Assembly: GCA_047947115.1 (NCBI GenBank)
Contig: CP170459.1
Location: 2,240,001 to 2,304,000, forward strand
Length of the DNA: 64,000 bases
Direction of reading: 5' to 3'
Source: Verrucomicrobiota bacterium
Lineage (GTDB): Bacteria; Verrucomicrobiota; Verrucomicrobiia; Limisphaerales; AAA164-E04
Shown: in pieces, positions 1,260 to 36,043 of the stretch
Layout of the letters: the number at the start of each line of letters is the position of its first letter
Position numbering within the stretch: the first letter of the stretch is position 1
The notes under the pieces: generated by a model
Told to the model about the DNA's origin: nothing
The model's database searches: none
The model's input: the letters and a program-made list of their open reading frames with translations, nothing else
Program-made: the position numbers and the translations under genes

Positions 1260-1346
1260 CATCCTGAACATCCTGTTCATCTCGCAGATCCCGCGACTGC
1301 GGCGACTGTCAAAAAAAATCTGTGAAAATCGGCGCCATCTGCGGTT
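1260..1346. repeat. ATCCTG-unit repeat interrupted by a 24-bp insert, followed by one CAGAT-family arm (1318-1346)
   Basis: ATCCTGAACATCCTGTTCATC[24 bp]CTGTC. The segment 1318-1346 resembles 5905-5933. Confidence 0.7.
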
Positions 1347-1363
1347 AAAAAAAGAAAAACACC

Positions 1364-2029
1364 TCAATTCCCGTCCCTGGCGCCCATGTCGATCCGCCAG
1401 AGCTTGCGTTGGGTGCGCCATGCCATCACCACCAAGCCCATCAGGATGGCCCAGAAAAAGATAGGGACCGTCACAGGCCACCAACTGGTTCCCAAGAACA
1501 CGATGGACGCGTTGAGCACAATCACGATGATACGAATCTCGGTTGGACCGATGCCGAAGAAATAGATCTCGAACTCATTCGTGGCGGCAAAGGACAAAAA
1601 GGAACTCACCATGTAACCGCTTGCCAGCACCAGGATCCCGACAAAATACCAGGTCAAGCCAGGAGGAGAGATCATCATGTAACCCACCACTATGGAAGAC
1701 TGGAAGATGTAGTCCAGAAAGTGGTCCATGTAATAACCCCACTTGATCAGTCCAGTCTTTCGGTAGCGTCCCACGGCGCCGTCGAACAAGTCGCTCAAAT
1801 ACTGAGCAACTACCATCAAAGAAACCAGCCACAGCCAGTTTAGATTGTTCTTTGCCTGCCAGCAAAACACCAGGATCAGGCCGGACCAAAGCAATGTCAG
1901 ATAGGTCAGGTGCCAGGTCTCGATCCAGGGAGGCAATCTTGGAACCCCTTTGTTCCGAAACCGATCCTCCCACCGGGTCATGACCGATGCGCCGACCTTT
2001 TGGTCTCCCTTGAAAACCTGCTTTGCCAT
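1364..2029 (-). CDS. CDP-alcohol phosphatidyltransferase family protein
   Basis: DLFDGAVGRYRKTG...WGYYMDHFLD matches the DxxDGxxAR...GxxxDxxxD motif. Start placed at ATG 2029 because the longer ORF overlaps the tRNA. Confidence 0.88.
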   Translation of the reverse strand: MAKQVFKGDQKVGASVMTRWEDRFRNKGVPRLPPWIETWHLTYLTLLWSGLILVFCWQAKNNLNWLWLVSLMVVAQYLSDLFDGAVGRYRKTGLIKWGYYMDHFLDYIFQSSIVVGYMMISPPGLTWYFVGILVLASGYMVSSFLSFAATNEFEIYFFGIGPTEIRIIVIVLNASIVFLGTSWWPVTVPIFFWAILMGLVVMAWRTQRKLWRIDMGARDGN

Positions 2030-2128
2030 GCCCGGACCATAGCTCAGCCCGCGTAGGCACGGTAGAAAAAATTCAAAAAACACTTGCAGGGAGCCCAGAC
2101 ATTTTTTAGTTTCTCGCTTCCTATTGGC

Positions 2129-2205
<77 letters not shown>

Positions 2206-2214
2206 TTCTTTTCT

Positions 2215-2267
2215 AACCGCACCACCGCCGAAGCGGGATCAACGAGATTGCGCCGACTCTCACAGAT
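2215..2267 (+). repeat. CAGAT-family repeat arm interrupted by a 24-bp insert (2222-2245)
   Basis: With the insert removed the arm is 26/29 identical to the reverse complement of 1318-1346. Confidence 0.8.
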
Positions 2268-2376
2268 TTTTTTCTCACTCAGGGGCGTAGGTTTTTTTTG
2301 GTGGTTGGTTTGCTTTGGGTTTTCTAGGGTAGTTTTCATATCATGAGAAGGCATTACCTACTGCTGTTTCTGACCT

Positions 2377-3717
2377 TTGCGTCTTTCCAAACCGAATGTC
2401 ATTTTCATCTTTGTCGATGATCAGGGCTATTACGATTTGGGGTGTTATGGCGCCACGGAAGTCAGGACTCCGAGAATCGATGCGATGGCGAAGGAGGGCG
2501 TGCGGTTTACGGATTATTATGCGGCGGCTCCGATTTGTAGTCCTTCGCGGGCGGGGTTGTTGACGGGGTGTTATCCTCGGCGGGTGGGGAATCACATCTG
2601 GGTGCATCGGGCGGATTCGCCTTCAGGATTGAATCCCAATGAACACACCATCGCCGAGCTGTTCAAGGGGCAGGGTTATGCGACCGCCTGCATTGGCAAG
2701 TGGCATTTGGGGTTTCGGGAACCGTTTCTTCCGCACAATCAGGGATTCGATCATTATTATGGCTTGCTACATAATCTGGACCCGGTTGAGGTGGTTTATT
2801 TTGGGGATGAGGGGGTGCCGTTGATGCGAAATGGTGAGGTTGTGAAGAGCCCGGCTGATCCGGCGGAATTGACCAGGCTCTACACGGATGAGGCGTTGCA
2901 GTTTATCGCACAAAACAAGGAACATCCGTTCTTTCTCTATCTTCCTCATACAATGCTTCACAATCCCCTCGGAGTGAGTGAAGGTTTCAAGGGGAGTTCG
3001 AATTGGGGGGAATATGGGGATGCGATTCAGGAACTGGATTTTCATGTTGGCCGTATCTTTGATGCGCTGGAGGAGTGGGGGATCGAGCAGAATACCTTTG
3101 TGGTGTATGCCTCGGATAATGGGCGTGGTCCCGGCCGAACACCTGAGCAGAAGATACGGGGGCGAAAGCTGTCAACCTATGAGGGCGGTATTCGTGTGCC
3201 TGCCATTGCGTGGGGGCCGGGCTTGGACGTGAAAAGTGGTCGGGCTACTTCAACTTTGGTGCGTGCCATGGATTGGTATCCGACTCTGGCCACGTTCGCG
3301 GGGATCAAGCTGCCGGAGGGGATTGTTATGGATGGGCGCGATATCAGTCCCCTGCTGAAAGGTGAATCAGACATTGTTCCCTTTCCCGGAAAAAGTGACG
3401 CGCTCAATGGCTCGGTGCCACTTCGGCGAAGGTGGGATCCTACTGGGGAGTGGGCTCCACTTAATTCGAGAGAGGAATACAATGATGCTTTTTTCTATCA
3501 TGGAAGCCAGGGAGCGTTGGCGGCGGTGCGTTGGGAACGTTGGAAGTTGTTTTTGAATCCTGTCCTGCAACTCTACGATCTGGAAGCGGATCCGGGAGAA
3601 TCCAAGCCTGTTCGCAATGGTGCTATTATCCGCAAGTTGCGTGGCATGGCAGTTTTGTTTCAGGAGGAGATGCGATTGGATGCGCGGCCGGCGGGGGAGG
3701 TTTCAGAGGGTCGTTAG
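2377..3717 (+). CDS. Sulfatase (Cys-type arylsulfatase family)
   Basis: KPNVIFIFVDD, CSPSRAGLLTG (CxPxR), GKWHLG and SDNG motifs. Start uncertain. Confidence 0.93.
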   Translation: MRLSKPNVIFIFVDDQGYYDLGCYGATEVRTPRIDAMAKEGVRFTDYYAAAPICSPSRAGLLTGCYPRRVGNHIWVHRADSPSGLNPNEHTIAELFKGQGYATACIGKWHLGFREPFLPHNQGFDHYYGLLHNLDPVEVVYFGDEGVPLMRNGEVVKSPADPAELTRLYTDEALQFIAQNKEHPFFLYLPHTMLHNPLGVSEGFKGSSNWGEYGDAIQELDFHVGRIFDALEEWGIEQNTFVVYASDNGRGPGRTPEQKIRGRKLSTYEGGIRVPAIAWGPGLDVKSGRATSTLVRAMDWYPTLATFAGIKLPEGIVMDGRDISPLLKGESDIVPFPGKSDALNGSVPLRRRWDPTGEWAPLNSREEYNDAFFYHGSQGALAAVRWERWKLFLNPVLQLYDLEADPGESKPVRNGAIIRKLRGMAVLFQEEMRLDARPAGEVSEGR

Positions 3718-3843
3718 TTTTTTGTTCTCACATAAAGACTCCAAGGCACGAAGGTTGATTCATTGGGTAAATGTTTTTGGTGAGGGGGAGATTCTTTTTT
3801 TGGCTGACTTGACCGTTATTTGATTATGGGTGAGGATGTCTTC

Positions 3844-5760
3844 ATGCGATTGTTTCAATCGAATAGAGGCTTGTATTGGGGTGGCCTGTTACTTGCGGGT
3901 TATGGGTTGGGGGGGACTGTGCATGCTGATTCGGAGATTGGGGTGTCGATTGATGCCACTTTGAACGGAGGTGTGGCCTTCATTCAGCAGTATTGCGTGG
4001 ATTGTCATCAGCCTCCCAAGCCCAAGGGTAAGCTTGATCTAAATTCCTACACCACGAGAGAGAGTATCATTGCCGATGGACTTGAATGGGACAAGCATCT
4101 GCATCGTGTGCGTGACGGAGACATGCCGCCGGATGATGAGGACGTTCCAGTGCCGGGAGTGGAGGAGCGTTTGGCGTTTGTCGACTGGGTGCAGTCGACT
4201 TTGCGTGAAGCAGCTTGTGCCGACGGTGTGCAGCCGGGGCCTGCGCTTGTTCGGCGATTGAATCGAAGTGAATATTCCGCTTCCGTCCGGCATTTGCTGG
4301 ATGTTCATTTCGATGCAGGTGAAGCTCTGCCCAGTGACGGAGCAGGGGGGGAGGGATTTGATAATGCCGCTGAAACACTTTTTATTTCTCCCATTCATGC
4401 CGAGAAATACCTTGAAGCCGCGCGATCTGCCGTTGAGTATGGTTTCGCCGACACACGATCCAGTCGTCGTTTTCTGATTGCTCAACCTGACGAAAACACC
4501 AGTCCTCCCGAAGCCGCTCGCAAGGTGTTGGATCGGTTTCTGCCAAATGCCTTTCGTCGACCGGCGACGGATGATGAGATCGGCGAATACATGGCATTGT
4601 TCGAAACTGCTTTTGAAGCGGATGGATCGTTTTCCACCGCCATGCAATTGACGCTTTCAGCGGTGTTGGTTTCTCCGAAATTTCTTTTCATCATGGAAGA
4701 GCCTGTCGAAGGTGCCGAGCCTGTGCCTTTGGTGGGGCACGAACTTGCCACGCGCCTGGCCTACTTTCTCTGGGGCGCTCCACCGGATGAACATCTGATG
4801 CAGCTGGCTGCTGAGGGGAAACTGCATGATTCCGAGGTGTTGAGGGGCGAGGTGGTGAGGATGTTGAAGGACCCGCATTCGCGGAAAGTTCGCAATTTTG
4901 CCCAGAACTTTGTCGAGCAATGGCTCGGAACTCGCGCGCTGGGGCGTGAGTTCAAACCGGACGCCTCCATCGAAGGTTATGACTCGGAGTTGGAGGGTGG
5001 GATGAAGTATGAACCGGTTTTCTTCTTCCATGAGGTTCTTACAGAGAACCGTCCTTTGCTGGACTTGATCGATGCGGATTACACCTACATCAACCGTCGC
5101 CTGTCCCGTCACTACAAGGTCAAAGGCGAGTTTCGCGAACAACCCAAACGGGTGGAGATTGCGGATGATCCGCATCGTGGCGGGCTATTGAGCATGGCGG
5201 CCGTGCTGGCAGTCTCCTCTCACCCGCATCGCACCAGTCCTGTGCTGCGTGGTAAATGGATTTTGGAAACTTTAATTGGCGAACCACCACCTCCGCCACC
5301 TCCCAACGTTCCCTTGCTGGAGGAAGACTCCGAAACGGCACAGCCTCAGCCTCTGCGTGAACGACTGGAAAAACACCGCGAGGATCCAACTTGTGCCACG
5401 TGTCATGACCGGATCGATCCTTTGGGATTTAGTTTGGAAAATTACGATGTGCTTGGAAGGTGGCGGGATACCGTTGGCGATCAAAAAGTGGATGCCAGAG
5501 CCACCATGCCCGATGGCACCGAATTTGAAGGGCCAGAGCAATTGAAACAAATTCTGATGGATCGGAAGGATCAAATCGTGCGGCATCTGACCAAAAAAAT
5601 GCTGGGTTACGCGCTTGGTCGCGGTTTGACCTATGAAGATTATTGTACGGTGGATCAGATCGTGGAGGATCTTAAGGCCAATGGCTATGCCTCACATCGC
5701 ATGTTGATGGGCATTGTCGAAAGCGTTCCTTTCCGATATAAAGCTGCACCAAGACAGTAA
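3844..5760 (+). CDS. DUF1592/DUF1588-family protein with N-terminal cytochrome c domain
   Basis: CVDCH, RRLNRSEY, TSPVLRGKWILE, CATCH and DPLGFSLENYD motifs; lies upstream of a DUF1552 gene. Confidence 0.9.
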   Translation: MRLFQSNRGLYWGGLLLAGYGLGGTVHADSEIGVSIDATLNGGVAFIQQYCVDCHQPPKPKGKLDLNSYTTRESIIADGLEWDKHLHRVRDGDMPPDDEDVPVPGVEERLAFVDWVQSTLREAACADGVQPGPALVRRLNRSEYSASVRHLLDVHFDAGEALPSDGAGGEGFDNAAETLFISPIHAEKYLEAARSAVEYGFADTRSSRRFLIAQPDENTSPPEAARKVLDRFLPNAFRRPATDDEIGEYMALFETAFEADGSFSTAMQLTLSAVLVSPKFLFIMEEPVEGAEPVPLVGHELATRLAYFLWGAPPDEHLMQLAAEGKLHDSEVLRGEVVRMLKDPHSRKVRNFAQNFVEQWLGTRALGREFKPDASIEGYDSELEGGMKYEPVFFFHEVLTENRPLLDLIDADYTYINRRLSRHYKVKGEFREQPKRVEIADDPHRGGLLSMAAVLAVSSHPHRTSPVLRGKWILETLIGEPPPPPPPNVPLLEEDSETAQPQPLRERLEKHREDPTCATCHDRIDPLGFSLENYDVLGRWRDTVGDQKVDARATMPDGTEFEGPEQLKQILMDRKDQIVRHLTKKMLGYALGRGLTYEDYCTVDQIVEDLKANGYASHRMLMGIVESVPFRYKAAPRQ

Positions 5761-5783
5761 ATCCAAAACAATTCAGTTGGGTC

Positions 5784-5933
5784 ATCCGCAGATGACTCAG
5801 ATCGACGCAGATTTTTTCTTCATGAGGGAAAATGTAACCATGGTGGGAGGGAGTATCGAATGGTTGTCGTTCAATGCAAAACAGAGTATTGTGTTTCCTG
5901 TAATATCTGCGTTCATCTGTGACATCTGCGGAT
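5784..5933. repeat. 150-bp MITE-like element with ~29-bp imperfect inverted arms built from CAGAT units
   Basis: ATCCGCAGATGACTCAGATCGACGCAGAT (5784-5812) and ATCTGCGTTCATCTGTGACATCTGCGGAT (5905-5933). Confidence 0.8.
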
Positions 5934-5953
5934 AAACAACATAAAACAAGCTT

Positions 5954-7300
5954 ATGCACATCACAGGTCAGACCAAACCCATTTCACGACGTACTTTGCT
6001 TAAAGGAACCGGAGCTGCACTGGCGTTGCCGTGGCTCGAATCCATGATGTCGCCCCGTCTTTTGGCCCAGCCAGAAGAAGGCCCCCGTCGTCTCGGAGTC
6101 TTGTTTCAACCGAATGGGGTTCGCGAAGATCAATGGACACCCGAGGGGGAGGGAACCGATTTCAAACTGTCCAAAACTCTTTCCCCTCTCGAAAGTCTCA
6201 AGGATAAGCTCCTGATCCCTACCAACCTATGGAATCAGGCTAGTAATGTGGGCGATGGCCACTACGTCAAGACCTCCGGTTTTTTGACCTGTCAGACAAT
6301 CAGCAAGTCCCTGGGATTTGATTTGAACAGCAACGGCGTTTCGATGGACCAGATTGCGGCACGCGGCATTGCCGGACAGACACCATTGCCCTCGCTTGAG
6401 TTGGCAATAGCACCGGTGAGTATCGGGGTGGATACCAATGTGGGATACACTCGTGTTTATGGATCGCATATCGCCTGGAGCCGTCCGACGCGACCCTTGG
6501 CCCGGGAGATCAATCCGAGGCTGGTTTTCGAACGATTGTTTCGCATCACGAACCCAAAAGAAGGGGGAAGTCAACAGGATCGGTTGCTCCTGGACCGTGT
6601 ATTGGGGGATGCCAAACAGTTGCAGCGTCGTGTCAGTCAAGAGGATCGCGCGCGAATCGATGATTACCTTGAGTCCGTCCGTGCCCTGGAGCAGCGTGTC
6701 CAGCAGGCCAGTCGACCGGAAGGCGCATCCTGGCAGCCGGCAGTGGACATGGATCCAACCGTCAAACCCGATGGTATTCCCGGGGAGCATGCAGAACATG
6801 TGCGTTTGATGCTCGACATGATGGCGCTGGCTTTTCAGACCGACAGCACGCGTGTCACAACCTTCATGTTTGGGAATGCGGTCAGCAACACCAATTTCTC
6901 GTTTCTGGACGGAGTCAGCTCAGGACACCACAGTGTGTCCCATCACGAAAACAAGGAGGAAAATCTGGTTCAGTACCAATTGATTGCCCAGTGGCACGTG
7001 GAGCAATATGCCTACCTCCTCAACAAACTTCAAAACATGCCCGAAGGGAACGGTACCGTGTTGGATCATTCGATGATCATGTTTGGTTCCGGTTTGCGGG
7101 ACGGCAACAAGCACAGTCCTCGCAACCTGCCCCTCGTGATCGCCGGATCTGCCGGTGGTCGCATCAAGACAGGGCAACATCTGGTGCAGGATCCGAATAC
7201 CCCGCTGGCGAACCTGTATTGCTCCATGCTGGAAGCTTTCGGCACTCCGGTGGAGCAGTTTGGGGACAGCACGGAGAAGCTGCCCGGGGTTTTGGTTTGA
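5954..7300 (+). CDS. DUF1552 domain protein
   Basis: SRRTLLKG..LALPWLESM leader, SMDQIAA and HHSVSHH motifs; usual partner of DUF1592. Confidence 0.92.
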   Translation: MHITGQTKPISRRTLLKGTGAALALPWLESMMSPRLLAQPEEGPRRLGVLFQPNGVREDQWTPEGEGTDFKLSKTLSPLESLKDKLLIPTNLWNQASNVGDGHYVKTSGFLTCQTISKSLGFDLNSNGVSMDQIAARGIAGQTPLPSLELAIAPVSIGVDTNVGYTRVYGSHIAWSRPTRPLAREINPRLVFERLFRITNPKEGGSQQDRLLLDRVLGDAKQLQRRVSQEDRARIDDYLESVRALEQRVQQASRPEGASWQPAVDMDPTVKPDGIPGEHAEHVRLMLDMMALAFQTDSTRVTTFMFGNAVSNTNFSFLDGVSSGHHSVSHHENKEENLVQYQLIAQWHVEQYAYLLNKLQNMPEGNGTVLDHSMIMFGSGLRDGNKHSPRNLPLVIAGSAGGRIKTGQHLVQDPNTPLANLYCSMLEAFGTPVEQFGDSTEKLPGVLV

Positions 7301-7348
7301 GTGTTTCTTGGCTTCACTTTGTGAGTCGAAATGGAATTTGGAAGCCAT

Positions 7349-7667
7349 CAGGTAGATCGGATCAGCTTGTCCCGCGACTGCGTGGATCTCGATCCACCCA
7401 CGAGCGGTAGCGATGCGGATGTGGGGTGTTCGAAAACCGGAGGCTTCCCGAAACGGAGGCGTTTGGGATATCGAAAGCCACAAGGCGACGTGCCAGGGAC
7501 GGCACGTCCTACCTTGGGGTGGTTCAGGTAGATCGGATCGTCTCGATCCGCCCGCGAGCGGTAGCGATGCGGATGTGGGGTGTTCGAAAACCGGAAGCTT
7601 CCCGAAACGGAGGCGTTTGGGATATCGGAAGTCACAAGGTGACGCGCCAGGGACGGCACGTCCTACC
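7349..7667. repeat. Two tandem REPIN-like elements (7349-7513, 7525-7667)
   Basis: Each runs CAGGTAGATCGGATC...GGGACGGCACGTCCTACC with a near-identical interior. Copy 1 carries a ~22-bp insert. Confidence 0.92.
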
Positions 7668-7711
7668 CAACCAGGATGTTTTACATCCTGGTAAAGATTG
7701 AATAAGTACAC

Positions 7712-7736
7712 AAAAAAGCGGCCCCGAGGGGCCGCT
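7712..7736 (-). terminator. Intrinsic terminator of fbaA
   Basis: AGCGGCCCC-GA-GGGGCCGCT stem with a T6 tract on the minus strand. Confidence 0.85.
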
Positions 7737-7768
7737 GTGAAAATTGGATATGAATTGTCAGGCAATGC

Positions 7769-8803
7769 TTACACGTCTCCGAAGATGGATTTGCCATCGG
7801 AGCGAAGGTCGCTGCAGGCTTCGGCGATGCGGTCGGCCATGCCTTTTTCACCGGCTTTCAGATAGCTGCGAGGATCATAGACTTTCTTGTTCCCGATTTC
7901 ACCGTCAACCTTGAGCACTCCGTCGTAGTTCTTGTAGAAATGATCGGCGATCGGGCGGGTGAAGGCGTATTGGGTGTCGGTATCGACGTTCATTTTCACC
8001 ACACCGTAGTCGAGCGTTTCACGGATTTCAGATAGCAGGCTTCCGCTGCCTCCGTGGAACACGAGGTCCATTTCGGCGCTGTCACCGTATTTAGCGATCA
8101 CGGCCTGTTGTCCTTGTTTGAGGATTTCAGGACGCAGTTTGACGGCTCCGGGTTTGTAGTGACCATGGACATTGCCGAAAGTGGCGGCGAAGGTGAAGCG
8201 ACCGATCGGGTGCAGCGCTTCGTAAACGGCCAGCATGTCTTCAGGTGTGGTGTAAAGGTGTTCTTCCGGGGTGTCTTCCGTTCCGGCGGCACCGTCTTCT
8301 TCACCTCCCACGACACCGGCTTCCACTTCGAGGATGATCTCGTTTTCAGCGGCCAGTTTGAGGTATTCCTTGGAGAGAGCCAGGTTTTCTTCCAGGGGAA
8401 GAATGGATGCATCCAGCATGTGGTTCTGGAACAGGTTGTTCTCACCTTTTGCACGGCGAGCGGCCGTGGCTTCGATCAAGGGTTTCAGAAAGTCACCGGC
8501 GTTCTTGGGTTGGCAGTGGTCGGTGTTCAGGGCAACGAGCACGTCATATTGTTCAGCCAGGCGATGAGCCGCTTCTGCCAGGATGATGGTTCCTTTGGTG
8601 GCGTCCTTGTTGTTCAAACCGGAGGCAAATTGTCCCGCGCCGGTGGAAAACTGGATGATGCCGTCGGATTTCATATCCGCAAAGGCTTTGAAGGCCGCGT
8701 TGAGCGTCATGATGCTCGTACAATTGATGGCCGGGTAGGCGTAGGAACCCTTCTGCGCTGCGTCCAACATAGCAGCGAATTGCTTGGGAGTGGCTATAGG
8801 CAT
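7769..8803 (-). CDS. fbaA: Class II fructose-bisphosphate aldolase
   Basis: TDHC, GVVGGEEDG, FGNVHG, FHGGSGS, KMNVDTD and KKVYDPR motifs. Confidence 0.96.
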   Translation of the reverse strand: MPIATPKQFAAMLDAAQKGSYAYPAINCTSIMTLNAAFKAFADMKSDGIIQFSTGAGQFASGLNNKDATKGTIILAEAAHRLAEQYDVLVALNTDHCQPKNAGDFLKPLIEATAARRAKGENNLFQNHMLDASILPLEENLALSKEYLKLAAENEIILEVEAGVVGGEEDGAAGTEDTPEEHLYTTPEDMLAVYEALHPIGRFTFAATFGNVHGHYKPGAVKLRPEILKQGQQAVIAKYGDSAEMDLVFHGGSGSLLSEIRETLDYGVVKMNVDTDTQYAFTRPIADHFYKNYDGVLKVDGEIGNKKVYDPRSYLKAGEKGMADRIAEACSDLRSDGKSIFGDV

Positions 8804-9212
8804 AGAATTATGATGCTAATAATTATTCGATTTCTGATTCAAAAACCCCAAATTGGGGCTAGTTCAAGCGTTTAATTTAGGTCAGGACACCGCAAATGAA
8901 AGCAAAAAAATTGCAATCAAAACCGTCCGTGACGCAGTTCAAAAATTAGAAAACCACTATCGGGGGAGTCATCCTGCATGCGGGACTTACTCCCACTCCA
9001 AGACTCAGGGTTTTGGAACCATTTTTCGGCCACGATGGAAACGCCATAGTCGTTCGATCAACTTCCGTCTTCCCTCCTTCCATTTCTGGTGGTCGGGAGT
9101 GTCTCGAGGAAAAAGTTAGGGACCGGACGGAACCGATCCCTCCATACTCCAAAATCTTCTGTTACTGGGCCTCCGTTTTTGGTTAGGTAACCACTTTCCC
9201 AGTAGCATCATT

Positions 9213-11350: not shown

Positions 11351-11358
11351 ACGTCTTC

Positions 11359-17608: not shown

Positions 17609-17810
17609 CCAGGGACGGCACGTCCTACCTGCGGGAGCCTCAGGTAGATCGGATCGTCTCGATCCGATCGCGAGCGGTAGCGATGCGGATGAGGGGGGTT
17701 CGAAAACCAAAGGCTTCCCAAAACGGAAACGTCTGGGATATCGGAACCCACAAGGCGACGCGCCAGGGACGGCACGTCCTACCTGTGGGGGGACCCAGGT
17801 AGATTCGATC
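17609..17810. repeat. REPIN-like element (17641-17783) flanked by partial copies
   Basis: Closely matches 7525-7667; fragments at 17609-17629 and 17796-17810. Confidence 0.9.
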
Positions 17811-26661: not shown

Positions 26662-26733
26662 AACTCGGCTTAACACGTGCTCGGATGCTACAGGATTCCC
26701 GCTGTTCATAGCCACTCAAATTAAACGCAAAAT

Positions 26734-26766: not shown

Positions 26767-26792
26767 TTTCCTTGGTCGTCTACGGTTTCTTT

Positions 26793-28079
26793 CTAGAAAT
26801 TAAATGCTGCTTGCAACCAGTAGCGTGTGCGGCCCGCTCTACCGTCGTCTCCGTCTTGATAGAGTGCTGCCTTGGCGAGGAGACTGAAGTATTTGCCCAG
26901 CTTTTTGGTGGCAAGAATATTGACTTCGTTACCATAGTCGTTGCCTCCATCTTCTGCTGAAAAATCGTGATAAAGGATTTTCAATGGAACCCCACCCGGT
27001 AGATTGTAACCAATCCAGGCATACATGTCTTCAAGACCATCTGCCGGCGTTGCAAGGAATGCATCCGCCCAGCCATTAAAAGCATGCGCCGTGGCAAGCG
27101 GAGTTGAAAACCCGATGGTCCCGTTATCGCTTGCCAAAACTTCATACCCGAGCCCGAAGTTGAATTTCTTGTAAAATCCTCCTGCATTCAGGTGGTAATA
27201 CGGAGCGGAGTAGTCGATGGGATTATCCCCATAGTCTGATTGCATCGCAAATTCGGCTTTGTAAGATGCCGCCCACGCATCATTGATCGTATATTTTCCA
27301 TCCAGACTTGCACCAAAGGTTGAGGACGAGAGTGCCAGCGCGTCCGGTAAATCGAGTAAATAACCGTATCCGGTCAATTTGCCGGGTTTTCCCAGATCAT
27401 AGGCAACGTGAAATATGTGCGAATCGGAATCCCAGTTGCCCGCCGGATGGTCATCCCCAAAAATCCGGTGAATCCGGAACAAATAGGCATAGAACAGTTC
27501 CGTTTTGGGAATCAGACTGGTGTTTTTCAAGCTCACCGCGTCGAAAGTTTGTTCATTCTGGCGCCAGATAACGTTTCCAACAAATCGAGCGTTATCCAGA
27601 ACAATACGCTGGCGACCAAACTTGACGGTGGTATCCATTTTTTCGTACGACAACCAGGCGCGATTCACTTCGGTGGCTTCTGGATCCGCAATAACAGACT
27701 TTGTAGCGGAGTTAGGATTGAGTCCTGCCGGATTGTAATTGTCTTCATCAATAAGACTGGTCACATTTTCAAACTCGAGCATGGACTTGAATCCTGACAG
27801 GTTTCCGGTGGTGTATCCAAGACGCGTTCTCAGGGTGAGCGCGTTCGATTCTGCCGGATCCGGTCCCCCGCCGAAAGAATCGATATCTGCATATTCATAG
27901 CGGAGATTGGAATTCACGTTGACCTTACCCTCGGTCAAGAATGCGGGCAATTTGTCCTTGAACCAGGAGGGGGAGTCTTTCGTTTCCTCAGCCCTTGTTT
28001 GGACTATCGTCGCACAAGCAATAGCCAGCAAGGCATGAACTCGGTTCGAGTATTTTGGGTGTTTGTTCAGGTTGTTCAT
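26793..28079 (-). CDS. Alginate-export-family outer-membrane beta-barrel
   Basis: GRQRIVLDNARFVGNVIWRQNEQTFDA and FSTPLATAHAFNGWAD motifs, C-terminal Phe, signal peptide. Confidence 0.88.
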   Translation of the reverse strand: MNNLNKHPKYSNRVHALLAIACATIVQTRAEETKDSPSWFKDKLPAFLTEGKVNVNSNLRYEYADIDSFGGGPDPAESNALTLRTRLGYTTGNLSGFKSMLEFENVTSLIDEDNYNPAGLNPNSATKSVIADPEATEVNRAWLSYEKMDTTVKFGRQRIVLDNARFVGNVIWRQNEQTFDAVSLKNTSLIPKTELFYAYLFRIHRIFGDDHPAGNWDSDSHIFHVAYDLGKPGKLTGYGYLLDLPDALALSSSTFGASLDGKYTINDAWAASYKAEFAMQSDYGDNPIDYSAPYYHLNAGGFYKKFNFGLGYEVLASDNGTIGFSTPLATAHAFNGWADAFLATPADGLEDMYAWIGYNLPGGVPLKILYHDFSAEDGGNDYGNEVNILATKKLGKYFSLLAKAALYQDGDDGRAGRTRYWLQAAFNF

Positions 28080-28212
28080 CAGTTTTCAATTTCTAGGATT
28101 CGGGTTCAGAAGTCTTTGCATCACGCCCCGCCAATGCCCAGGTGATTTCAGGATTGGTGAAACCGTGATGTCTTCAGACAGTTTTTGTCCCTTCATCGGA
28201 CATTTCAACGCG

Positions 28213-28228
28213 AGCACTGGCAATGCCA
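28213..28228 (-). promoter_or_regulatory. Candidate sigma-54 -24/-12 promoter for the porin gene
   Basis: Minus strand reads TGGCAT-TGCCA-GTGCT, with correct GG-N10-GC spacing. Confidence 0.4.
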
Positions 28229-28644
28229 GAACCTTATGATTGATTATAAGGTGCATGAATCGTTTGCATGAATGGAATGAAGGAATTGCATGGATCCCCT
28301 AAAGGTATGGTGGCTTGCGGTTCGGCAGTTATAGCATACGTGGTGATGTCTTGGATCAGAAGCATCATGGGCCTGTGCAATGGAAACTCCCCTCTGTCGA
28401 ACTGATTATAGGACGGAACCGATGTCGCATTTTTTATGAACTGTCTCCTTTTATACAGGTTCGTGAAAAGAATGGAGCAAAAGACGAAGCCGGTCGTAAT
28501 GGTTCTCGATCAGAAAAGAGTTTGATTGATGCAGACCACTTATTAATACTCACTGTCATCCAATTCACTTTAAATCCGGCTGAGATGAGACGCGGAGCAA
28601 ACGTGCTGATGAGGCATCTGTTGGTTTTGAATTTAGTATTGAAT

Positions 28645-31239
28645 ATGATGTTACCAAGAATTGCATTGTTATTGTTGTCGAGCCTGTCCTGGCTCGGGAC
28701 TCTAGTCGTTTTATCCGATGAAGCCCGATATATCCGCGATGAGGATACCGGAATCACTTTGATGGAGGGATTTGACGCCGAGTTGATTTATGACGTTCCA
28801 ATTTCCCAAGGTTCCTGGGTGGCGATGGCCTTCGACCCAAAGGGCAGGCTCATTGTTTCTGATCAGGATGACAAAGGCGTTTTTCGAGTGACATTGCCCG
28901 GGACCGGTGCCGTCACGGAAGGAATACAGGTGGAGAGTCTGGAGGGCTTCCCTTATCTGCCGATAAAGTGGGGCAGACGCACGGTGGGTGGTGCGCTGGG
29001 CTTCGTGCATGCCTTTGATAGTCTCTACATGTCTTCCATGAAAGGCTTTTATCGTATCCGGGATACCGATGGAGACGATCGATATGATGAATTCCAACTC
29101 CTGAAAAAGCTCGGTGTGGGCTATGAGCATTCGGCGCATTCCATTATTGTGACCGAGGACGGCAAGGGACTTTACCTGGTTGTAGGAAACCACACCCGGG
29201 TTCCTGAAGGTGTGCCCAGTTTGCAGCCTCCTGTTTGGGACACCGATTCATTACTGCAGGAGATGCCCGATGCGATGGGGCATGCAGTCGGTATCCGTCC
29301 ACCAGCGGGTTATATCTGCCGCATTTCACCAGACGGTGAGGAATGGGTAATGCTTGCATCCGGGTTTCGGAATGCAGTGGACATTGCGTTGAACAGGGAA
29401 GGTGAATTGTTCACGTATGACTCCGATCTTGAATTTGATATCGGCGTGCCCTGGTATCGTCCCACACGCGTCAATCATGTGACATCGGCAAGTGAATTCG
29501 GTTGGCGCGCCGGTTCCGCCAAATGGCCGGAGTATTTTGCAGATGGAAATGGTGCTGTGCTCAATATCGGTCCAGGGTCGCCGACCGGTATCAGCTTCGG
29601 GCATCACTCCAATTTTCCAAATGTTTACCAGGATAAATTGTTCATTTGTGATTGGACCTTTGGCGCCATTTATATGGTGGAGATGGAGGAAGACGGCTCC
29701 AGTTACACCGGAACCAAAACGAAGTTTCTCAGTGGTGAACCGCTGAACATTTCGGCCATGCGATTTGGTCCGGATGGCAACATGTACTTTCTGGTGGGGG
29801 GGCGAAATACGGATTCGAAGCTTTATCGAATCAGTTACAAAGGTGCCGACATTCCAGGAGGAGTCAAAGATCTGACAAAGAACCAGCACCTTCGTGACTT
29901 ACGTCATTCGCTGGAAGCATACCATGGTTTGTCTGATGGGGGTGAGGGTGCCGTTCAAAAGGCCTGGCCGTATTTGTCGCATGAAGATCGATATATTCGC
30001 TATGCCGCTCGTCTGGCCATTGAAAATCAGCAGGTTTCCTTATGGCAAGATCGTGTGTTTACCGAAACGGAGCCAAGAGCCATCATTTACTCCGCTATTG
30101 GACTGAGTCGTCATGGAGACAAAAGGCTTTCGAATCGACTTTTGGGGAAGCTTCACACGATACCCTTTCAAGCTTTGGAAAACGAAGATCGGTTGGCGCT
30201 TCTCAGAGCTTATTCGCTTTGTTTTATCCGAATGGATGAACCCGCTCCTGAAAAAGTTCACGCGATCATTGCTCAATTGGACCCACATTTCCCCAGCGAA
30301 AACGAAGCGCTCAATACCGAACTTTGCCGTGTCCTATGTTACCTGGACGCGCCTGATGTCGTGAGGAAAACCATTGCATTGATGAAGGTGACTCAAACCA
30401 AAACGCTCGACTATGACAGGCAAACCTTGCAGCGTCACGAGTACGGCAAGACTATTCTGCAAACCATGGCCAACACGCCCAATATTCAAAATATTCAATA
30501 CGCTTACTCATTACGACGTGTTCAAAACGGATGGACGCTTGATGATCGCAAATACTTTTTTGGCTGGATGAATGAAACACTCATGAAAAGTGGGGGAAAG
30601 AGTTTTGCTGGATACATGCGTGCGATCAGGGAAGATGCCATCCAACACCTGCCACCCGAGGCGGCTTCGTCAGTTTCCTGGTTGTTGGGGGATATTGAGT
30701 CCGTCGATCTGAGCCAACTCCCGACACCCAAGGGACCCCCGGTTGCCTGGACCACCGACAAGTCGATGGAGCTGTTCAAGGACTCACTGCAGGGTCGCGA
30801 TTTTCAAAACGGCAAAACCATGTTTTCAGCAGGACGCTGTGTGGCCTGTCATCGTTTCCAGGGATCGGGTGGTTATTCGGGGCCTGATCTTGGTTCGGTG
30901 GGCAATCGTTACACGATTCGGGACATCCTGCAGTCCATCTGTGAACCCAGTCATTCCATTTCGGAACAATACCAGGCCAGCACCGTTCATATGAAGGATG
31001 GCTCGATGTTGTACGGACGAATCATTTATCAGAATGAAGATGAATTGGCGTTGGCATCCAATCCCTTCAATTTCGGTCAAATCACCAAAACACCCGTCGA
31101 ACAAGTGGAGAAGATAAAACCCTCTCAGATATCCCTGATGCCGATGGGCACCATATACGGCATGAATGCTGAGGAGCTCAAGGACTTGATCGCTTACCTC
31201 ATTTCCGGAGGGAATCGTAGGCACGAAGTATTTCAGTGA
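28645..31239 (+). CDS. PVC-type membrane-bound dehydrogenase-like protein with C-terminal haem c
   Basis: Beta-propeller motifs (DTDGD, GFRN, GSPTG), CVACH, GPDL, SLMP. Start placed at the signal peptide. Confidence 0.88.
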   Translation: MMLPRIALLLLSSLSWLGTLVVLSDEARYIRDEDTGITLMEGFDAELIYDVPISQGSWVAMAFDPKGRLIVSDQDDKGVFRVTLPGTGAVTEGIQVESLEGFPYLPIKWGRRTVGGALGFVHAFDSLYMSSMKGFYRIRDTDGDDRYDEFQLLKKLGVGYEHSAHSIIVTEDGKGLYLVVGNHTRVPEGVPSLQPPVWDTDSLLQEMPDAMGHAVGIRPPAGYICRISPDGEEWVMLASGFRNAVDIALNREGELFTYDSDLEFDIGVPWYRPTRVNHVTSASEFGWRAGSAKWPEYFADGNGAVLNIGPGSPTGISFGHHSNFPNVYQDKLFICDWTFGAIYMVEMEEDGSSYTGTKTKFLSGEPLNISAMRFGPDGNMYFLVGGRNTDSKLYRISYKGADIPGGVKDLTKNQHLRDLRHSLEAYHGLSDGGEGAVQKAWPYLSHEDRYIRYAARLAIENQQVSLWQDRVFTETEPRAIIYSAIGLSRHGDKRLSNRLLGKLHTIPFQALENEDRLALLRAYSLCFIRMDEPAPEKVHAIIAQLDPHFPSENEALNTELCRVLCYLDAPDVVRKTIALMKVTQTKTLDYDRQTLQRHEYGKTILQTMANTPNIQNIQYAYSLRRVQNGWTLDDRKYFFGWMNETLMKSGGKSFAGYMRAIREDAIQHLPPEAASSVSWLLGDIESVDLSQLPTPKGPPVAWTTDKSMELFKDSLQGRDFQNGKTMFSAGRCVACHRFQGSGGYSGPDLGSVGNRYTIRDILQSICEPSHSISEQYQASTVHMKDGSMLYGRIIYQNEDELALASNPFNFGQITKTPVEQVEKIKPSQISLMPMGTIYGMNAEELKDLIAYLISGGNRRHEVFQ

Positions 31240-31339
31240 ATTGAACTGAGAAACCCGCAGAATGATGCGAACTTACAGTTAATTGTTTGTGCGAAATGTT
31301 GAATGTTGAGACTTGACCCCAAATAAACTAAACAAGTCA

Positions 31340-31936
31340 TCAGGCATCGCCTTGCTTGTTCATTGACTTAGGGACGTTTAAGCCGTCGTTTTGAGCCGGA
31401 TCATGGAAGGGGGTGTTCTGGACATAAAAAAAGGCGTCCAGTTGTGATGAAAGTTTGTTTTTTAGTTGGTTGATCGTGCTTCGAGCTGCCCGGAAGAGTT
31501 TCAGGCGTTCGCCGGCGAGTTTGCGGCTTTCTTTTCGCAGGCGATGCAAAATTTCCGCCATGGCTTTTTTCTGGAAACCGGGAAATACTTTTTCCAGTTC
31601 AGTTAAAAGTCGGTTGCGTGTTTGTTTGGTGTCCCGGATGACGGATAACGCTTCTGCTTCACTTACCTCCCCGGCTTCCACATATCTCAACAGAGTGCAT
31701 CGGAATAATCCACATCGAGCCGGACGGCAGTGGTAGGTTTGACATGCGTCTTGTCGATAGCCTGAGCAGGGTTGCTGCATGATCCAGTCACCGTGATCAT
31801 CCTGTTGCACACGAAGCTCGGCGGATTTAAGGGATTCGACAGAATCTTCCGACTGAAGTCGCACACGCGTGAACAGTGTTCCGTCACAACAGAACCCGCA
31901 GGCCAGGCAAAGTCTTTCTTCCACACTTTGATTCAT
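31340..31936 (-). CDS. YkgJ-family cysteine-cluster protein
   Basis: CLACGFCC...QPC...CQTYHCRPARCGLFRC. Confidence 0.87.
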   Translation of the reverse strand: MNQSVEERLCLACGFCCDGTLFTRVRLQSEDSVESLKSAELRVQQDDHGDWIMQQPCSGYRQDACQTYHCRPARCGLFRCTLLRYVEAGEVSEAEALSVIRDTKQTRNRLLTELEKVFPGFQKKAMAEILHRLRKESRKLAGERLKLFRAARSTINQLKNKLSSQLDAFFYVQNTPFHDPAQNDGLNVPKSMNKQGDA

Positions 31937-32138
31937 TGACTTCAGCTTCAATCAAACTCGCATCAAAGGCCTCACTTTGATCTTTGAATTGGTTCACCGT
32001 TTCCCAAGAAACAGCTTGGCGGACGGCGCGGTGCACAAAACGGGATAAATCTCTTTTTTTCATGCCTGACAGCGCCAGGTGAGATCTGACAATTTGATCG
32101 GTCTCTTCAGGTATGACCAATGTCCATCGGGTTGACAT
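31884..32138 (-). CDS. Ribbon-helix-helix protein (XACb0070-like), C-terminus probably disrupted
   Basis: MSTRWTLVIPEETDQIVRSHL...KKRDLSRFVHRAVR; 3' end overlaps the ykgJ-like start. Confidence 0.7.
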   Translation of the reverse strand: MSTRWTLVIPEETDQIVRSHLALSGMKKRDLSRFVHRAVRQAVSWETVNQFKDQSEAFDASLIEAEVNESKCGRKTLPGLRVLL

Positions 32139-32167
32139 CTGCAATTCCTCTCTCTCAAATGGATCCT

Positions 32168-32207
32168 TATACATCGAATCGTATAGGTGGGGCCTCCATT
32201 TTGTCAA
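32168..32207 (-). promoter_or_regulatory. Sigma-70 promoter with overlapping inverted repeat for the RHH gene
   Basis: TTGACA-N18-TACGAT, with TATAC-N8-GTATA overlapping the -10. Confidence 0.55.
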
Positions 32208-32368
32208 TGGGTCACCCTTCCTCTCAACTTTAGATATCCTATTGTCTTCGTTCCATGTGGCTCTCGGTTCACACTTATATTTTCTGAAGGAACTGAGATG
32301 CGCCGCCCATCGTTCTACACTACAGGCTTGACCACTGGTGTTCAGGGGGGAAACTGGAAGCCAATCAA

Positions 32369-34426
32369 ATGAACATTTGGAAAGCATTTCTCAATTTTTC
32401 TATTCTGTTGTCACAAGTCACGGTTCAATCCGAACCGGCGCAATATGACATTGTGATATACGGAGGCACCAGTGCCGGCATCGTGGCGGGACTTCAAGCC
32501 AAGGCCATGGGTAAATCCGTCGTGGTGATCGAGCCCACCCATCGTGAAGGCGGTTTGACCACCGGCGGTCTTGGACAAACGGACATAGGCAACAAGCACG
32601 TGATCGGTGGTTTGTCCCGTCAGTTTTACGAACGCATCGCCAATTACTATGCCAACGACAGCGCCTGGAAATGGCAAAAACGTGAAGAGTACCGAAGTGG
32701 CGGGCAAAGCATCACCCAAAAGGGGGAATCGACTCTGTGGACCTTCGAGCCGAGTGCCGCGCTCAAGGTGTATCGTGATTGGATCCACGCAACAGGACTC
32801 ACCATTGTCCACAGTGAACGCCTGGATCGTGAAAACGGTGTCAGCAAGGATGGGGCCGTCATTCGATCGATTACCATGGAATCGGGACGAACCTTCAAGG
32901 GACGTATTTTCATGGATACCACCTATGAAGGAGATCTCATGGCTGCCGCTGGAATCAGTTACACACTTGGACGCGAGGCGGATGCTCAATATGGTGAAAC
33001 ATTGAATGGTGTCCAGACCAGGCAGGCACGCTATCATAACTTTGTCGACGGAGTCGATCCTTACCGGATCAAGGGTGATCCTGATAGCGGGCTCTTACCG
33101 TTTTTGGATCCAAATGGACCTGGTGAAGAAGAATCTGCCGATCTTAAAATACAGGCCTATTGTTTTCGTATGTGTCTGACCGATCATCCGGGCAACCGTA
33201 TTCCGTTTTACAAACCAGAAGGGTACGATCCGTTGTGGTACGAGCTGTTGTTGCGGAATTTCGAAGCCGGCGAGCGTGGGATGCCATGGATCAATTCCAG
33301 CATGCCCAACCGCAAAACCGACACCAACAATCGCACCGGGTTTTCAACGGATTTCATCGGTCAGAACTACGACTACCCGGAAGCCAGTTATGAGGAACGC
33401 GATGCCATCCGGGCGCGTCATCTCTTATATCAACAAGGTTTGATGTGGACCCTTGCCAATCATCCACGCGTGCCGGACAAGATCCGGAACGAAGTGGCTC
33501 CTTGGGGCATGAGTCGTGATGAGTTTGTTGAAGGGGGTGGATGGCAGAACCAGTTGTATGTAAGGGAGGCACGGCGCATGGTCAGTGATTTTGTGATGAC
33601 ACAGCATCATTGTCAGCAACGGGACATCGTGGAGGATTCCATTGGCATGGGCGCCTACACCATGGACTCGCATAATGTGCAGCGTTACGTGAACGCCGAT
33701 GGTTTTGCCAAGAACGAAGGTGATGTGGAAGTCGGGGGATTTCCTCCTTATCCGATCAGCTATCGGGCGATCGTGCCGCGACGCGAGGAAGCGACCAACC
33801 TGCTGGTGCCCGTCTGTCTGTCGGCCAGTCACATGGCCTTCGGGTCGATTCGCATGGAACCCGTGTTCATGGTCTTGGGGCAATCCGCCGCGACTGCAGC
33901 CTGTCTGGCATTGGATGCGGGTGTTTCCGTTCAAGATGTCCCCTACGAGACATTGAGAGAGCGATTGGAACAGGACGGGCAGATCCTTAATTACGGAGCG
34001 TCCTACCAACAATCCCAACTGGACGGCATCATCGTCGACGATACCAAGGCGATTCTTCTAGGAAATTGGAAACAATCGACGTTGCTAGCAGGTTATCGCA
34101 TGGGCTACAAACACGACGGAGACGCTCGCGACGGAAACTCATCTGCCACCTTTGCCGCCAAGCTGCCCAAGCCCGGCAAATACGAAGTGCAGATCGCCTG
34201 GACCTCCAATCCCAATCGTGCCACCAACGTTCCTGCTCAGGTCAAACATGTCCAAGGCGAGCGGAACTTTCTTCTCAATCAACGTAAGGAGCCCAATCAG
34301 GACATTGGCTTTCACAGACTGGGAGTTTTCCAATTCGGAACAGAAGCTGAAGTGATCATCAGCAATCAAGATACCGACGGACATGTCATTATTGATGCCG
34401 TTCGGTGGGTGAAAGTGGTGCAATAG
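32369..34426 (+). CDS. Secreted FAD-dependent oxidoreductase with golvesin/xanthan-lyase-like C-terminal domain
   Basis: IYGGTSAG, DTTYEGDL, YVREARR and SIRMEP motifs; C-terminal ATNVP...IDAVRW. Confidence 0.88.
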   Translation: MNIWKAFLNFSILLSQVTVQSEPAQYDIVIYGGTSAGIVAGLQAKAMGKSVVVIEPTHREGGLTTGGLGQTDIGNKHVIGGLSRQFYERIANYYANDSAWKWQKREEYRSGGQSITQKGESTLWTFEPSAALKVYRDWIHATGLTIVHSERLDRENGVSKDGAVIRSITMESGRTFKGRIFMDTTYEGDLMAAAGISYTLGREADAQYGETLNGVQTRQARYHNFVDGVDPYRIKGDPDSGLLPFLDPNGPGEEESADLKIQAYCFRMCLTDHPGNRIPFYKPEGYDPLWYELLLRNFEAGERGMPWINSSMPNRKTDTNNRTGFSTDFIGQNYDYPEASYEERDAIRARHLLYQQGLMWTLANHPRVPDKIRNEVAPWGMSRDEFVEGGGWQNQLYVREARRMVSDFVMTQHHCQQRDIVEDSIGMGAYTMDSHNVQRYVNADGFAKNEGDVEVGGFPPYPISYRAIVPRREEATNLLVPVCLSASHMAFGSIRMEPVFMVLGQSAATAACLALDAGVSVQDVPYETLRERLEQDGQILNYGASYQQSQLDGIIVDDTKAILLGNWKQSTLLAGYRMGYKHDGDARDGNSSATFAAKLPKPGKYEVQIAWTSNPNRATNVPAQVKHVQGERNFLLNQRKEPNQDIGFHRLGVFQFGTEAEVIISNQDTDGHVIIDAVRWVKVVQ

Positions 34427-34465
34427 TAGTCAGCGTGTTTTCTATGGACAGCCACCGCAGTCGCG

Positions 34466-35979
34466 CATGCGCGTCAGGATAAAAATGATTATTTTTAACG
34501 ATAAAGCTGTATTTTTATGTACAGTTTGCTTTCTACTTTTCCGAATGACTCTCCAACAAATCCTTGTCAGACAATATCATCTTCAGATCTTCAACACACA
34601 ACAAGACCTCAACCCAAATGTTTGACTTTACTCCCAGATTCACAAGGGGTTTCCCTGCCTCATGAATGGCACCGATGTGCCCAAACATTAACCGGTTGGT
34701 TCGCTGATTTCGATTTCCAGACACTTGCTCGCGCCACCGGCTTTGTCCTGCGAACTCCGCGAAAAATAATGCCCGAATTTTTTCTACAAGCGACTATTCT
34801 ATTGGTTTGCCAAGGCACCGCAAGTTTGAGTCGATGGGCGACTTTGTTGGGAATTTTGAGCAATAATACTATTGCCAAACAGTCATTGTGGGAACGAATG
34901 AACCAGGGCGCTGTGAATTATATTCAATGCATCCTGGCGCTAGTATTAAGCGCCAAATCCAAAGACAATGGCCGCAACGTCCCAAACAAGTTCAATCGAT
35001 TTCCACGAATCCTTGTTCATGATAGCACGACCATCAAAGTAAATTCGAAACTGGCGGCTGCTTTTCCCGGTTCGGCTAACCAAAGTGGTTCCAAAATTGC
35101 ATCGCTGAAAATACAAGCCATTCAGGATATACAAAATCAACAATTCCTCTACTTCGGGATAAGTGGATTTAGACGTAACGACCAAACCGCAACTTATGAT
35201 ATTTTGAAAGTCATACGTAAGGGGGACTTAATACTCCGTGACTTGGGCTATTTCGTGATAGAATCATTCCAACAGATAGCAAACGCTGGAGCCTATTATT
35301 TGAGTCGAATCCGATTGGATATCGAAGTGAGGGACCCAGCCACAGGAGAAAAAATCGATTTACTCAAAAAACTGAAACGATTAGGAAATTTGGACTTTGA
35401 TGTTTTGCTCTCAGATAAGCAGTTACCCGTGCGATTGGTGGCCATCAAACTTCCCGATGAGATCGCGGCAGAACGGCGACGCAAAGCCAAGAGCAATCGT
35501 GATAAAAGGCGAAAGCCCAATGCCCAAAGGTTGGAGTTGCTTGGTTGGGCGATATTCACAACCAATGTTCCCCAGAACGAATGCACAGCAAAAGAAGTGG
35601 CAAAGATCTACGGTTTGCGCTGGCGGATAGAAACCATTTTTAAGGCATGGAAAAGCCATTTTCGTATCACCGAGGTTCCTGACGGTTCTGCAGAGCAACT
35701 CCGGATAGTGGTTTGTGCACGACTCATTTTTATTACCGTTCTTACAAACTTGATAGAGCGTGACTGGCTTGCCCCAGGGCAGACTTGCAACGCGGCGCAT
35801 TTGAGCATGTTGAAAGTGGCTGCTCTACTGGGAGATTACTTTTTGGCTCTGTGTTTTGAAGCGTGGAATGTACAAGTCAGCGATGCTATCCCTATACAAA
35901 TGAGATACCAATGCAAATATGACAAACGATCTCGTCAAAACTATGAACAAAACCTCCTGGCTTTATCCTGACGCGCATG
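34466..35979 (+). mobile_element. IS4-family (IS231-like) insertion sequence, 1514 bp
   Basis: Perfect 18-bp IRs CATGCGCGTCAGGATAAA / TTTATCCTGACGCGCATG; 10-bp direct repeat CGCAGTCGCG at 34456-34465 and 35980-35989. Confidence 0.95.
34517..35971 (+). CDS. IS4-family DDE transposase
   Basis: HDSTT, RDLGYF and YGLRWRIETIFKAWK (YREK) motifs; stop codon lies inside the right IR. Start uncertain. Confidence 0.95.
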   Translation: MYSLLSTFPNDSPTNPCQTISSSDLQHTTRPQPKCLTLLPDSQGVSLPHEWHRCAQTLTGWFADFDFQTLARATGFVLRTPRKIMPEFFLQATILLVCQGTASLSRWATLLGILSNNTIAKQSLWERMNQGAVNYIQCILALVLSAKSKDNGRNVPNKFNRFPRILVHDSTTIKVNSKLAAAFPGSANQSGSKIASLKIQAIQDIQNQQFLYFGISGFRRNDQTATYDILKVIRKGDLILRDLGYFVIESFQQIANAGAYYLSRIRLDIEVRDPATGEKIDLLKKLKRLGNLDFDVLLSDKQLPVRLVAIKLPDEIAAERRRKAKSNRDKRRKPNAQRLELLGWAIFTTNVPQNECTAKEVAKIYGLRWRIETIFKAWKSHFRITEVPDGSAEQLRIVVCARLIFITVLTNLIERDWLAPGQTCNAAHLSMLKVAALLGDYFLALCFEAWNVQVSDAIPIQMRYQCKYDKRSRQNYEQNLLALS

Positions 35980-36043
35980 CGCAGTCGCGGGATCTGGAGC
36001 GATCGATACGACACAGATCTCAGGATAAAGCTACAGCACGAAT

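Follow-up and report, generated by a model that had tools for sequence, protein, structure and literature searches.

An analysis of a bacterial genome and its relatives found a mobile hairpin that is real and very small, and for which there is a strong but unproven candidate enzyme. The common unit was a core hairpin, TCCCGC-N(1-8)-GCGGGA, of 14-20 nt with a fixed stem and a variable loop, and its flanks varied with the host sequence. The core was gained and lost at individual sites. It substituted for a host stretch of 6-12 nt, often a small palindrome, in either orientation and without duplication, and the replaced stretch was usually flanked by a purine on one side and a pyrimidine on the other. 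The window, meaning the whole stretch of 64,000 nt that was analysed (G000:C1:2240001-2304000), belongs to the source genome G000, a single contig of 6.08 Mb.

Sites in the window

The motif CGC-N4-GCGGGA had four matches in the window with 0.69 expected, and four or more matches occurred in one of 100 shuffles (Table 1). A sequence-only reading of the window had proposed four sites sharing a (C)CGC-N4-GCGGGA core, and all four were real. Removal of the insert at site 1, which begins 16 nt past tRNA-Arg(ACG), left an arm 26/29 identical to the reverse complement of 1318-1346, and removal at site 2 restored the decamer repeat, both as claimed there. Site 3 was correctly described as present in the first REP copy and absent from the two later copies. 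It was not a pure insertion, since 23 nt displaced one REP base (net +22), 9 nt from the GTAG tag. This site was also filled in the sister species G001, with a variant core. Target duplications were absent at sites 1-3, as the reading had stated, with a boundary ambiguity of 1 nt at site 1. The reconstructed empty target of the insertion sequence proved to be the element itself, with a 10-bp duplication. The unit of about 24 bp did not hold: only the 14-20-nt core was conserved, and the 22-24-nt forms were the core plus flanks specific to the host repeat.

Table 1. Positions of the core, its host repeats and the insertion sequence in the window
Feature	Position	Strand	Remarks
CGC-N4-GCGGGA matches	1289-1301, 2226-2238, 7370-7382, 35980-35992	-, +, -, +	window motif search
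Site 2, 24-nt insert in decamer-type repeat	1282..1305	-	core 1289-1301 with class-B flanks
Host decamer repeats around site 2	1261..1348	-	includes uninterrupted arm 1318-1346
Site 1, 24-nt insert in decamer-type repeat	2222..2245	+	core 2226-2238, loop variant
Site 3, 23-nt long-form insert in GTAG-type REP	7364..7386	-	core 7370-7382
Empty copy of site-3 REP	7527..7550	+	
Empty copy of site-3 REP	17643..17666	+	
Class-B insert, left part	34452..34465	+	ends in left target duplication 34456-34465
IS4-family insertion sequence with terminal inverted repeats	34466..35979	+	transposase ORF 34517-35971; PF01609; NF033592 over cut-off
Right target duplication (35980-35989) and remainder of class-B insert	35980..35998	+	

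Two further repeat regions were seen in the window. At positions 56296-57045, a 217-bp REP cluster was repeated about 3.4 times in tandem, and a 16-nt hairpin occurred there four times. About 50 copies of this GTAG REP family were found, with compensatory stem variants, and no empty form was seen. At 5784-5933, decamer repeats formed an inverted pair, and some conspecific contigs jumped from 5765 to about 5905.

Abundance and anatomy of the core hairpin

Genome-wide counts bore out the enrichment. The exact 13-mer occurred 28 times in the source genome against 0.10-0.18 expected (Markov orders 4-6), and CCGC-N4-GCGGGAY occurred 38 times against 7-8 expected. Only a spacer of 4 was enriched, with 38 matches versus 3-15 for each other spacer from 0 to 10. 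The loose motif CGC-N4-GCGGGA gave 109 matches against a background of 48-57. As this is only about twofold, about half of its matches are due to chance. A census based on flanks yielded 66 matches, of which a few are due to chance; 55 lay outside long ORFs, although long ORFs span 83% of the genome.

Among class-B copies fetched via their host flanks, loop changes (21/76) exceeded stem changes (12/171); the class-A long copies had no loop excess. A pyrimidine followed most cores on each strand in the genomes G052 (49 and 54 of 57) and G041 (35 and 32 of 42). Of 20 perfect cores in the source genome, only 11 obeyed the purine/pyrimidine rule at both ends. A second core family, TCCCGA-N(2-7)-TCGGGA, was present there with 33 copies versus 0 in the reversed genome, for example at G000:C1 265836, 1344331 and 3758844. 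It occupied the same REP slots as the TCCCGC family, and five TCCCGA-type cores were found in the 650 kb of G001 that were compared.

Filled and empty orthologous sites

The sister species G001, with about 80-94% identity, held 57 copies. The exact 13-mer was absent from G002-G017, of which G002-G007 are more distant members of the genus (about 70-75% identity), and occurred 11 times in G040 from another family. The comparison with G001 covered 650 kb picked around its filled sites in an assembly that is 88% complete, and filled and empty states were classed by eye. Of the 57 sites, 35 were anchored in the source genome. There, 16 sites showed the host repeat but no core (14 clean cases and two degenerate ones), 12 were filled in both genomes, two of them as long versus short form, one held a different core and six lacked the host repeat. 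In the other direction, 18 of 83 broad sites of the source genome were anchored in the 650 kb, one being a chance coding match. Six of the remaining 17 were empty in G001, and site 1 was additionally empty. Window sites 1 and 2 appeared in G001 as exact 24-nt gaps, and a filled G001 site about 200 nt from the position of site 2 was empty in the source genome. Among REP orthologues of the two genomes, long, short and empty states stood side by side.

These pairs, found in both directions, support the earlier proposal of an element that is very small, non-autonomous and parasitic on other repeats, as does the presence of the same core in different hosts of other families and phyla. The direction of change, gain versus loss, is clear only for tRNA scars, where the intact tRNA is ancestral. 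Conspecific metagenome contigs (4 of 20 runs), which break at repeats and drop rare variants, listed no empty alleles of sites 1-3. The same runs span the GIY-YIG gene described below, and small core differences within them probably stem from the other scar.

Host contexts of the core

At least four kinds of host were found in the source genome, and the core was their only common part. Two were GTAG REP types with about 45 and 33 empty copies. Their long form added net 22 nt, the short form placed 17 nt for 7, and the junction lay 9 nt from the GTAG tag in both types. Decamer repeats were counted by script once, with 22 empty copies versus seven exact 24-nt inserts, and another repeat had a slot filled by many different cores. 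Copies of tRNA-fMet carried 16 nt in place of 8 nt of the anticodon arm, and two tRNA-fMet loci had the core at the same position in opposite orientations.

Other genomes extended this range. The core was located inside a different REP in G040 and at the T-loop position in 11 of the 149 tRNA scar matches listed. The RNase P RNA of G052 held cores at the tip of helix P3 and in the P12 region. One ORF carried an in-frame core where its relatives show a small palindrome, and the core was also found within other micro-repeats. In a transposase-like ORF, which we take to be IS110-like, one and the same site (L321 and L322, position about 1800) was occupied by a 16-nt core in one genome and an unlike 19-nt core in another; no empty allele was found for the transposase site in G041. 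The GxxExxY gene, present once in the source genome, was considered and set aside; the repeats beside it are hosts and held other cores. As separate observations, the RNase P RNA gene of G052 (L288:1477-1944) still scored 211 bits with helix P3 lengthened by one of its two cores, and the intergenic spaces of L011 (G000:C1 1338001-1356000) were crowded with nested micro-inserts of several types.

A candidate enzyme at tRNA loci

The sequence-only reading had postulated a trans-acting enzyme and named a co-occurring nuclease gene as one possibility. Such genes were found with the core in a neighbouring tRNA scar, so the candidate can now be named: a gene, located at tRNA loci, for a small SLX1-like GIY-YIG protein, whose role in spreading we infer. 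The source genome encoded three small GIY-YIG genes, two of which had a tRNA copy on one side and a scarred one on the other. The fMet-linked gene occupies G000:C1:3011022-3011306 on the minus strand. The scar of the fMet cassette held a TCCCGC-type core and that of the Thr cassette a TCCCGA-type core, so that two cassettes with two scar cores corresponded to the two matching dispersed families. The third gene (G000:C1 1875575-1875900) was preceded by a tRNA-like remnant whose hairpin insert was a different one.

The candidate protein is a single-domain protein of about 95 aa, SLX1-like, in which the catalytic-type residues Y10, Y20, R30, H34 and E66 were conserved and intact. Its sequence matched UPF0213, and its structural model (pLDDT 90) had the best fold matches to UPF0213 and Slx1, far better than to I-TevI. 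Structures of the UPF0213/Slx1 type are placed in the Slx1 family in passages of PMC1564403. The two tRNA-linked proteins received no name from NCBIfam.

A GTDB scan for fMet scars returned at least 120 loci with 149 matches, and 85 different cores were counted among the matches listed. Some matches were not tRNA-like, the 3' test being passed by 107 of the 149 listed. The loci listed came from Verrucomicrobiota, Lentisphaerae, Acidobacteriota, Bacteroidota, Patescibacteria and other phyla. A GIY-YIG ORF lay within 1.2 kb of 92/120 scar loci listed versus 3/30 intact fMet loci, as detected with a profile seeded on the source genome and refined on the same, partly overlapping loci. In 75 of the 149 scar matches listed, the anticodon loop supplied the TAA stop codon of the ORF. 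When loci were selected by protein only, all 13 closest homologues among 250 genomes had a core-bearing downstream scar, several of these loci overlapping with those of the GTDB scan. As the homologues were picked by protein, there was no selection on the core in this test. One of the 13 scars showed a compensatory stem change. Some distant homologues neighboured tRNAs for Asn, Thr, Met, Cys and Ser, and CCCGA-type hairpins accompanied several of these; others lacked such a scar, and one preceded an intact tRNA-Gly. Six att-type tRNA duplicates of the source genome that span the anticodon arm and have no downstream-scar position held no core (0/6). Because these spare copies were unscarred, dispensability alone is not enough to account for the link between core and gene. 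A single-protein query of viral contigs confirmed no GIY-YIG relatives.

Altogether, the core and the nuclease gene were tightly linked at tRNA scars, and the GIY-YIG protein of about 95 residues is the likely spreader of the core. Tandem arrangements were also present. Units of GIY-YIG gene and scarred tRNA-fMet were repeated at L107/L108 and L216 with periods of 329 bp and 132 bp. At L015:540-890 (G001:C42) and G000:C1 3052447-3052681, tandem units of about 159 bp, consisting of promoter and tRNA-fMet, lay upstream of the intact gene; every extra tRNA-fMet copy was core-scarred and no nuclease gene lay between them.

Proposed mechanism and alternative explanations

On balance, we lean towards a hairpin of 14-20 nt that is gained and lost site by site and spread in trans by the SLX1-like GIY-YIG protein of about 95 residues encoded beside a scarred tRNA. 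The nuclease would bind the core stem on single-stranded or extruded DNA and nick at the foot of hairpins. The host would then repair the cut host hairpin, and an existing core would be copied or ligated in place of the tip; host repair must be assumed, since joining or copying DNA is beyond a nuclease by itself. Within a repeat family, conversion between copies may carry a core along together with 4-7 nt of flank specific to the host, giving the 22-24-nt forms. More tentatively, and with somewhat more doubt than belief, the nuclease could replace the tip of whatever DNA hairpin is accessible with the 14-20-nt hairpin that it recognises. This would be a distinct class of mobile DNA, each nuclease clade having its own stem, that spans repeats, structural RNA genes, reading frames and many uncultured phyla.

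At the genome level, core-rich was defined as a core excess of five or more over the reversed pattern in a phylum sample (29 versus 221 genomes). A GIY-YIG homologue was found in 24/29 core-rich and 64/221 other genomes, counts that come from lists transcribed by hand and include kin genomes that are not independent. The query used gave no GIY-YIG match in 5 of the 29. In G333, which held 98 cores, 41 of the first 50 listed shared the loop of its scar. The scar loop equalled the dispersed loop in G000, G333, G046 and G048, but in G041, G085, G060 and G308 it was not the one most common among dispersed cores. A strict rule of one loop per genome set by the resident scar was rejected, as it fails in these last four.

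It is unlikely that the core, though mobile, is written by another enzyme, either an HUH transposase of the RAYT/Y1 type or a repair enzyme of the host, while the cassette merely inherits a core in its scar. In favour of this explanation, HUH enzymes cut and rejoin single-stranded DNA without duplication, the source genome had five Y1 matches, both REP types were hosts with the junction close to the GTAG tag, and a Y1 transposase was found in 25/29 core-rich versus 134/221 other genomes. It would also fit genomes with many copies and no intact small GIY-YIG gene, which speak against the GIY-YIG candidate. G001 had the most uniform copies (15/18 and 29/34 perfect) and, in its 88% complete assembly, only a broken Thr-type gene; no small GIY-YIG gene was found in G040, with 11 copies and 89% completeness. 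An fMet att copy of G001 lacked the cassette present at the matching place in the source genome, which indicates that the cassette comes and goes. Against a Y1 or host enzyme stand the cores in hosts free of GTAG, namely tRNA scars, RNase P RNA, an ORF and decamer repeats, as well as the matching of two cassettes to two core families. The GIY-YIG link also held among Y1-positive genomes (23/25 core-rich versus 50/134 others, p 3e-7), whereas the converse, Y1 among GIY-YIG-positive genomes, was borderline (23/24 versus 50/64, p 0.06). No core lay in the 1.3 kb around the one Y1 locus inspected of the five in the source genome.

We consider it improbable that dedicated mobility is absent and that a few old chance insertions became repeat subfamilies shuffled by gene conversion. 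Such conversion would account for turnover inside a family, for flanks specific to each host class and for long, short and empty states at orthologous REP sites. It does not explain why the same stem recurs across phyla in hosts of unrelated kinds, in single-copy RNA genes and in coding frames, why one tRNA position is struck in both orientations, or why one transposase site carries a different core in each of two genomes. The possibility, raised with the sequence-only reading, that the inserts are fixed parts of repeat subfamilies thus applies to the flanks and is largely refuted for the core; the 22-24-nt forms may still fit it. It is very improbable that a reverse transcriptase copies the hairpin at a nick from RNA, such as the transcript of a scarred tRNA, whether or not the GIY-YIG protein takes part. 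In its favour, scars lie in transcribed tRNA loci, an RNA-mediated route has reportedly been proposed for cyanobacterial SDRs, and one RVT_1 match each was found in G000 and G333. Against it, three of five core-rich genomes (G001, G060 and G052, incomplete assemblies) gave no RVT_1 match, one site was filled in both orientations and tRNA flanks were never co-copied.

If the GIY-YIG candidate is right, the hairpin would be among the smallest mobile DNAs with a candidate enzyme, inserted by replacement without a transposase, and a sequence too short for ends, promoter or gene would still propagate. It would account, in many uncultured bacteria, for broken tRNA copies and for short insertions that lie in frame or in RNA helices, and the protein would represent a second family of hairpin-specific GIY-YIG nucleases next to Ssn. 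For the multiplication of SDR-like elements, bacterial repeats of about 20 nt, the passages covered name no enzyme. The present case is testable, as it offers a candidate of 95 residues, a substrate that is defined and naturally occurring pairs of filled and empty sites. New here are the orthologous filled/empty pairs, the controlled linkage tests, the matching of two cassettes to two cores and the targeting by IS4.

Comparison with known systems

One close likeness was to Ssn/NTS (SsnA, cd10448; dRS3/SRM), in which passages of PMC11893778 (Chenal et al. 2025) tie a small single-domain GIY-YIG gene to a dispersed hairpin. The NTS stem, TCCCGC-N4-GCGGGA, is identical to the core stem. SsnA binds the single-stranded DNA hairpin with this stem and cuts beside it; the stem sequence is needed and loop identity is dispensable (PMC11893778), and Slx1 cleaves branched DNA (PMC1564403). 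The present protein shares the single domain of about 95 aa and intact active-site residues. However, the CGTCA tag was absent from these elements, the gene here lies in tRNA scars whereas tRNA goes unmentioned in PMC11893778, and NTS mobility is hypothesised in that paper, whereas filled/empty pairs were observed here. The NTS motif had 0 matches in the source genome, and SRM had 21 versus 45 in the reversed genome, none within elements. In a tree with few columns and long branches, used as a proxy for membership of the cd10448 clade, three NTS-linked proteins from viral contigs grouped on a separate branch (100/99, length 2.28) that did not include the fMet protein of G000. The element would act like Ssn/NTS and resembles SDRs, yet fails the NTS/SRM motif test and the proxy tree test.

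The Nostocaceae SDRs of Elhai et al. 2008 reportedly measure about 20-27 nt and have no enzyme of their own. Size, precise nesting in other repeats and filled/empty orthologues are shared with the present element. Differences are the other phyla and hosts, replacement here instead of pure insertion, and the candidate enzyme. Passages on SDRs describe precise insertion into other short repeats (SDR5 into HIP1) and presumed mobility (PMC4390886, PMC5861425, PMC2884548, PMC3116915).

REP/REPIN sequences are described, in passages of PMC3116915 and PMC3733652, as short palindromes with GTAG and CGTC repeats that are multiplied in trans by the RAYT gene they flank. The core has no GTAG/CGTC tag at the foot of its hairpin, the tag belonging to some hosts only, and it is a single hairpin instead of a doublet, with a GIY-YIG instead of a Y1 protein as candidate enzyme; REPs are hosts of the core. 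The phage T4 enzyme SegB is likewise encoded by a GIY-YIG gene among tRNA genes. According to passages of PMC2330249, it is a free-standing homing endonuclease in a tRNA cluster whose target includes a T stem-loop motif; it differs in cutting double-stranded DNA at a 27-bp site and homing between phages, with no hairpin micro-element. A MITE would differ in its target duplication, which is absent at sites 1-3, and in sharing terminal inverted repeats with a transposase-bearing IS; the element is unlike the IS4 ends. No description of tRNA-scar GIY-YIG genes or of this hairpin was found in the literature covered, which mostly excluded subscription journals.

An IS4-family element as secondary parasite

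The insertion sequence in the window has the features of the IS4 family, with a DDE transposase over the family cut-off, terminal inverted repeats and a 10-bp duplication. Nine full copies were present in the source genome, and eight had at least one flank in the element. The ninth lay in the constitutive hairpin of another GTAG REP family, of the type at window 56296-57045. Only 97 of 1752 CGC-N4-GCG sites had an element-like arm. IS4 is a secondary parasite with a target preference for these hairpins. An origin of the element as an IS4 footprint was rejected, as IS4 duplicates a pre-existing core and the footprint in G001 looks different. No IS4 relatives were found at E 1e-40 in 300 genomes. 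Passages of PMC1525189 report insertion sequences with a strong preference for palindromic REP sequences. The preference is the same here, the target being a micro-element that is itself a parasite within a repeat, which makes IS4 a new case of an insertion sequence targeting palindromic repeats.

The IS4 footprint in G001 (L012:13870-13900, G001:C6) consisted of the 10-bp duplication on either side of four terminal bases, with the IS body gone. IS4 copies with unmatched flanks were located at G000:C1 668817, 4191965-4193479 and 4254940-4256453, suggesting recombination between copies. A 468-bp IS4-derived MITE was present at G000:C1 3985873-3986341.
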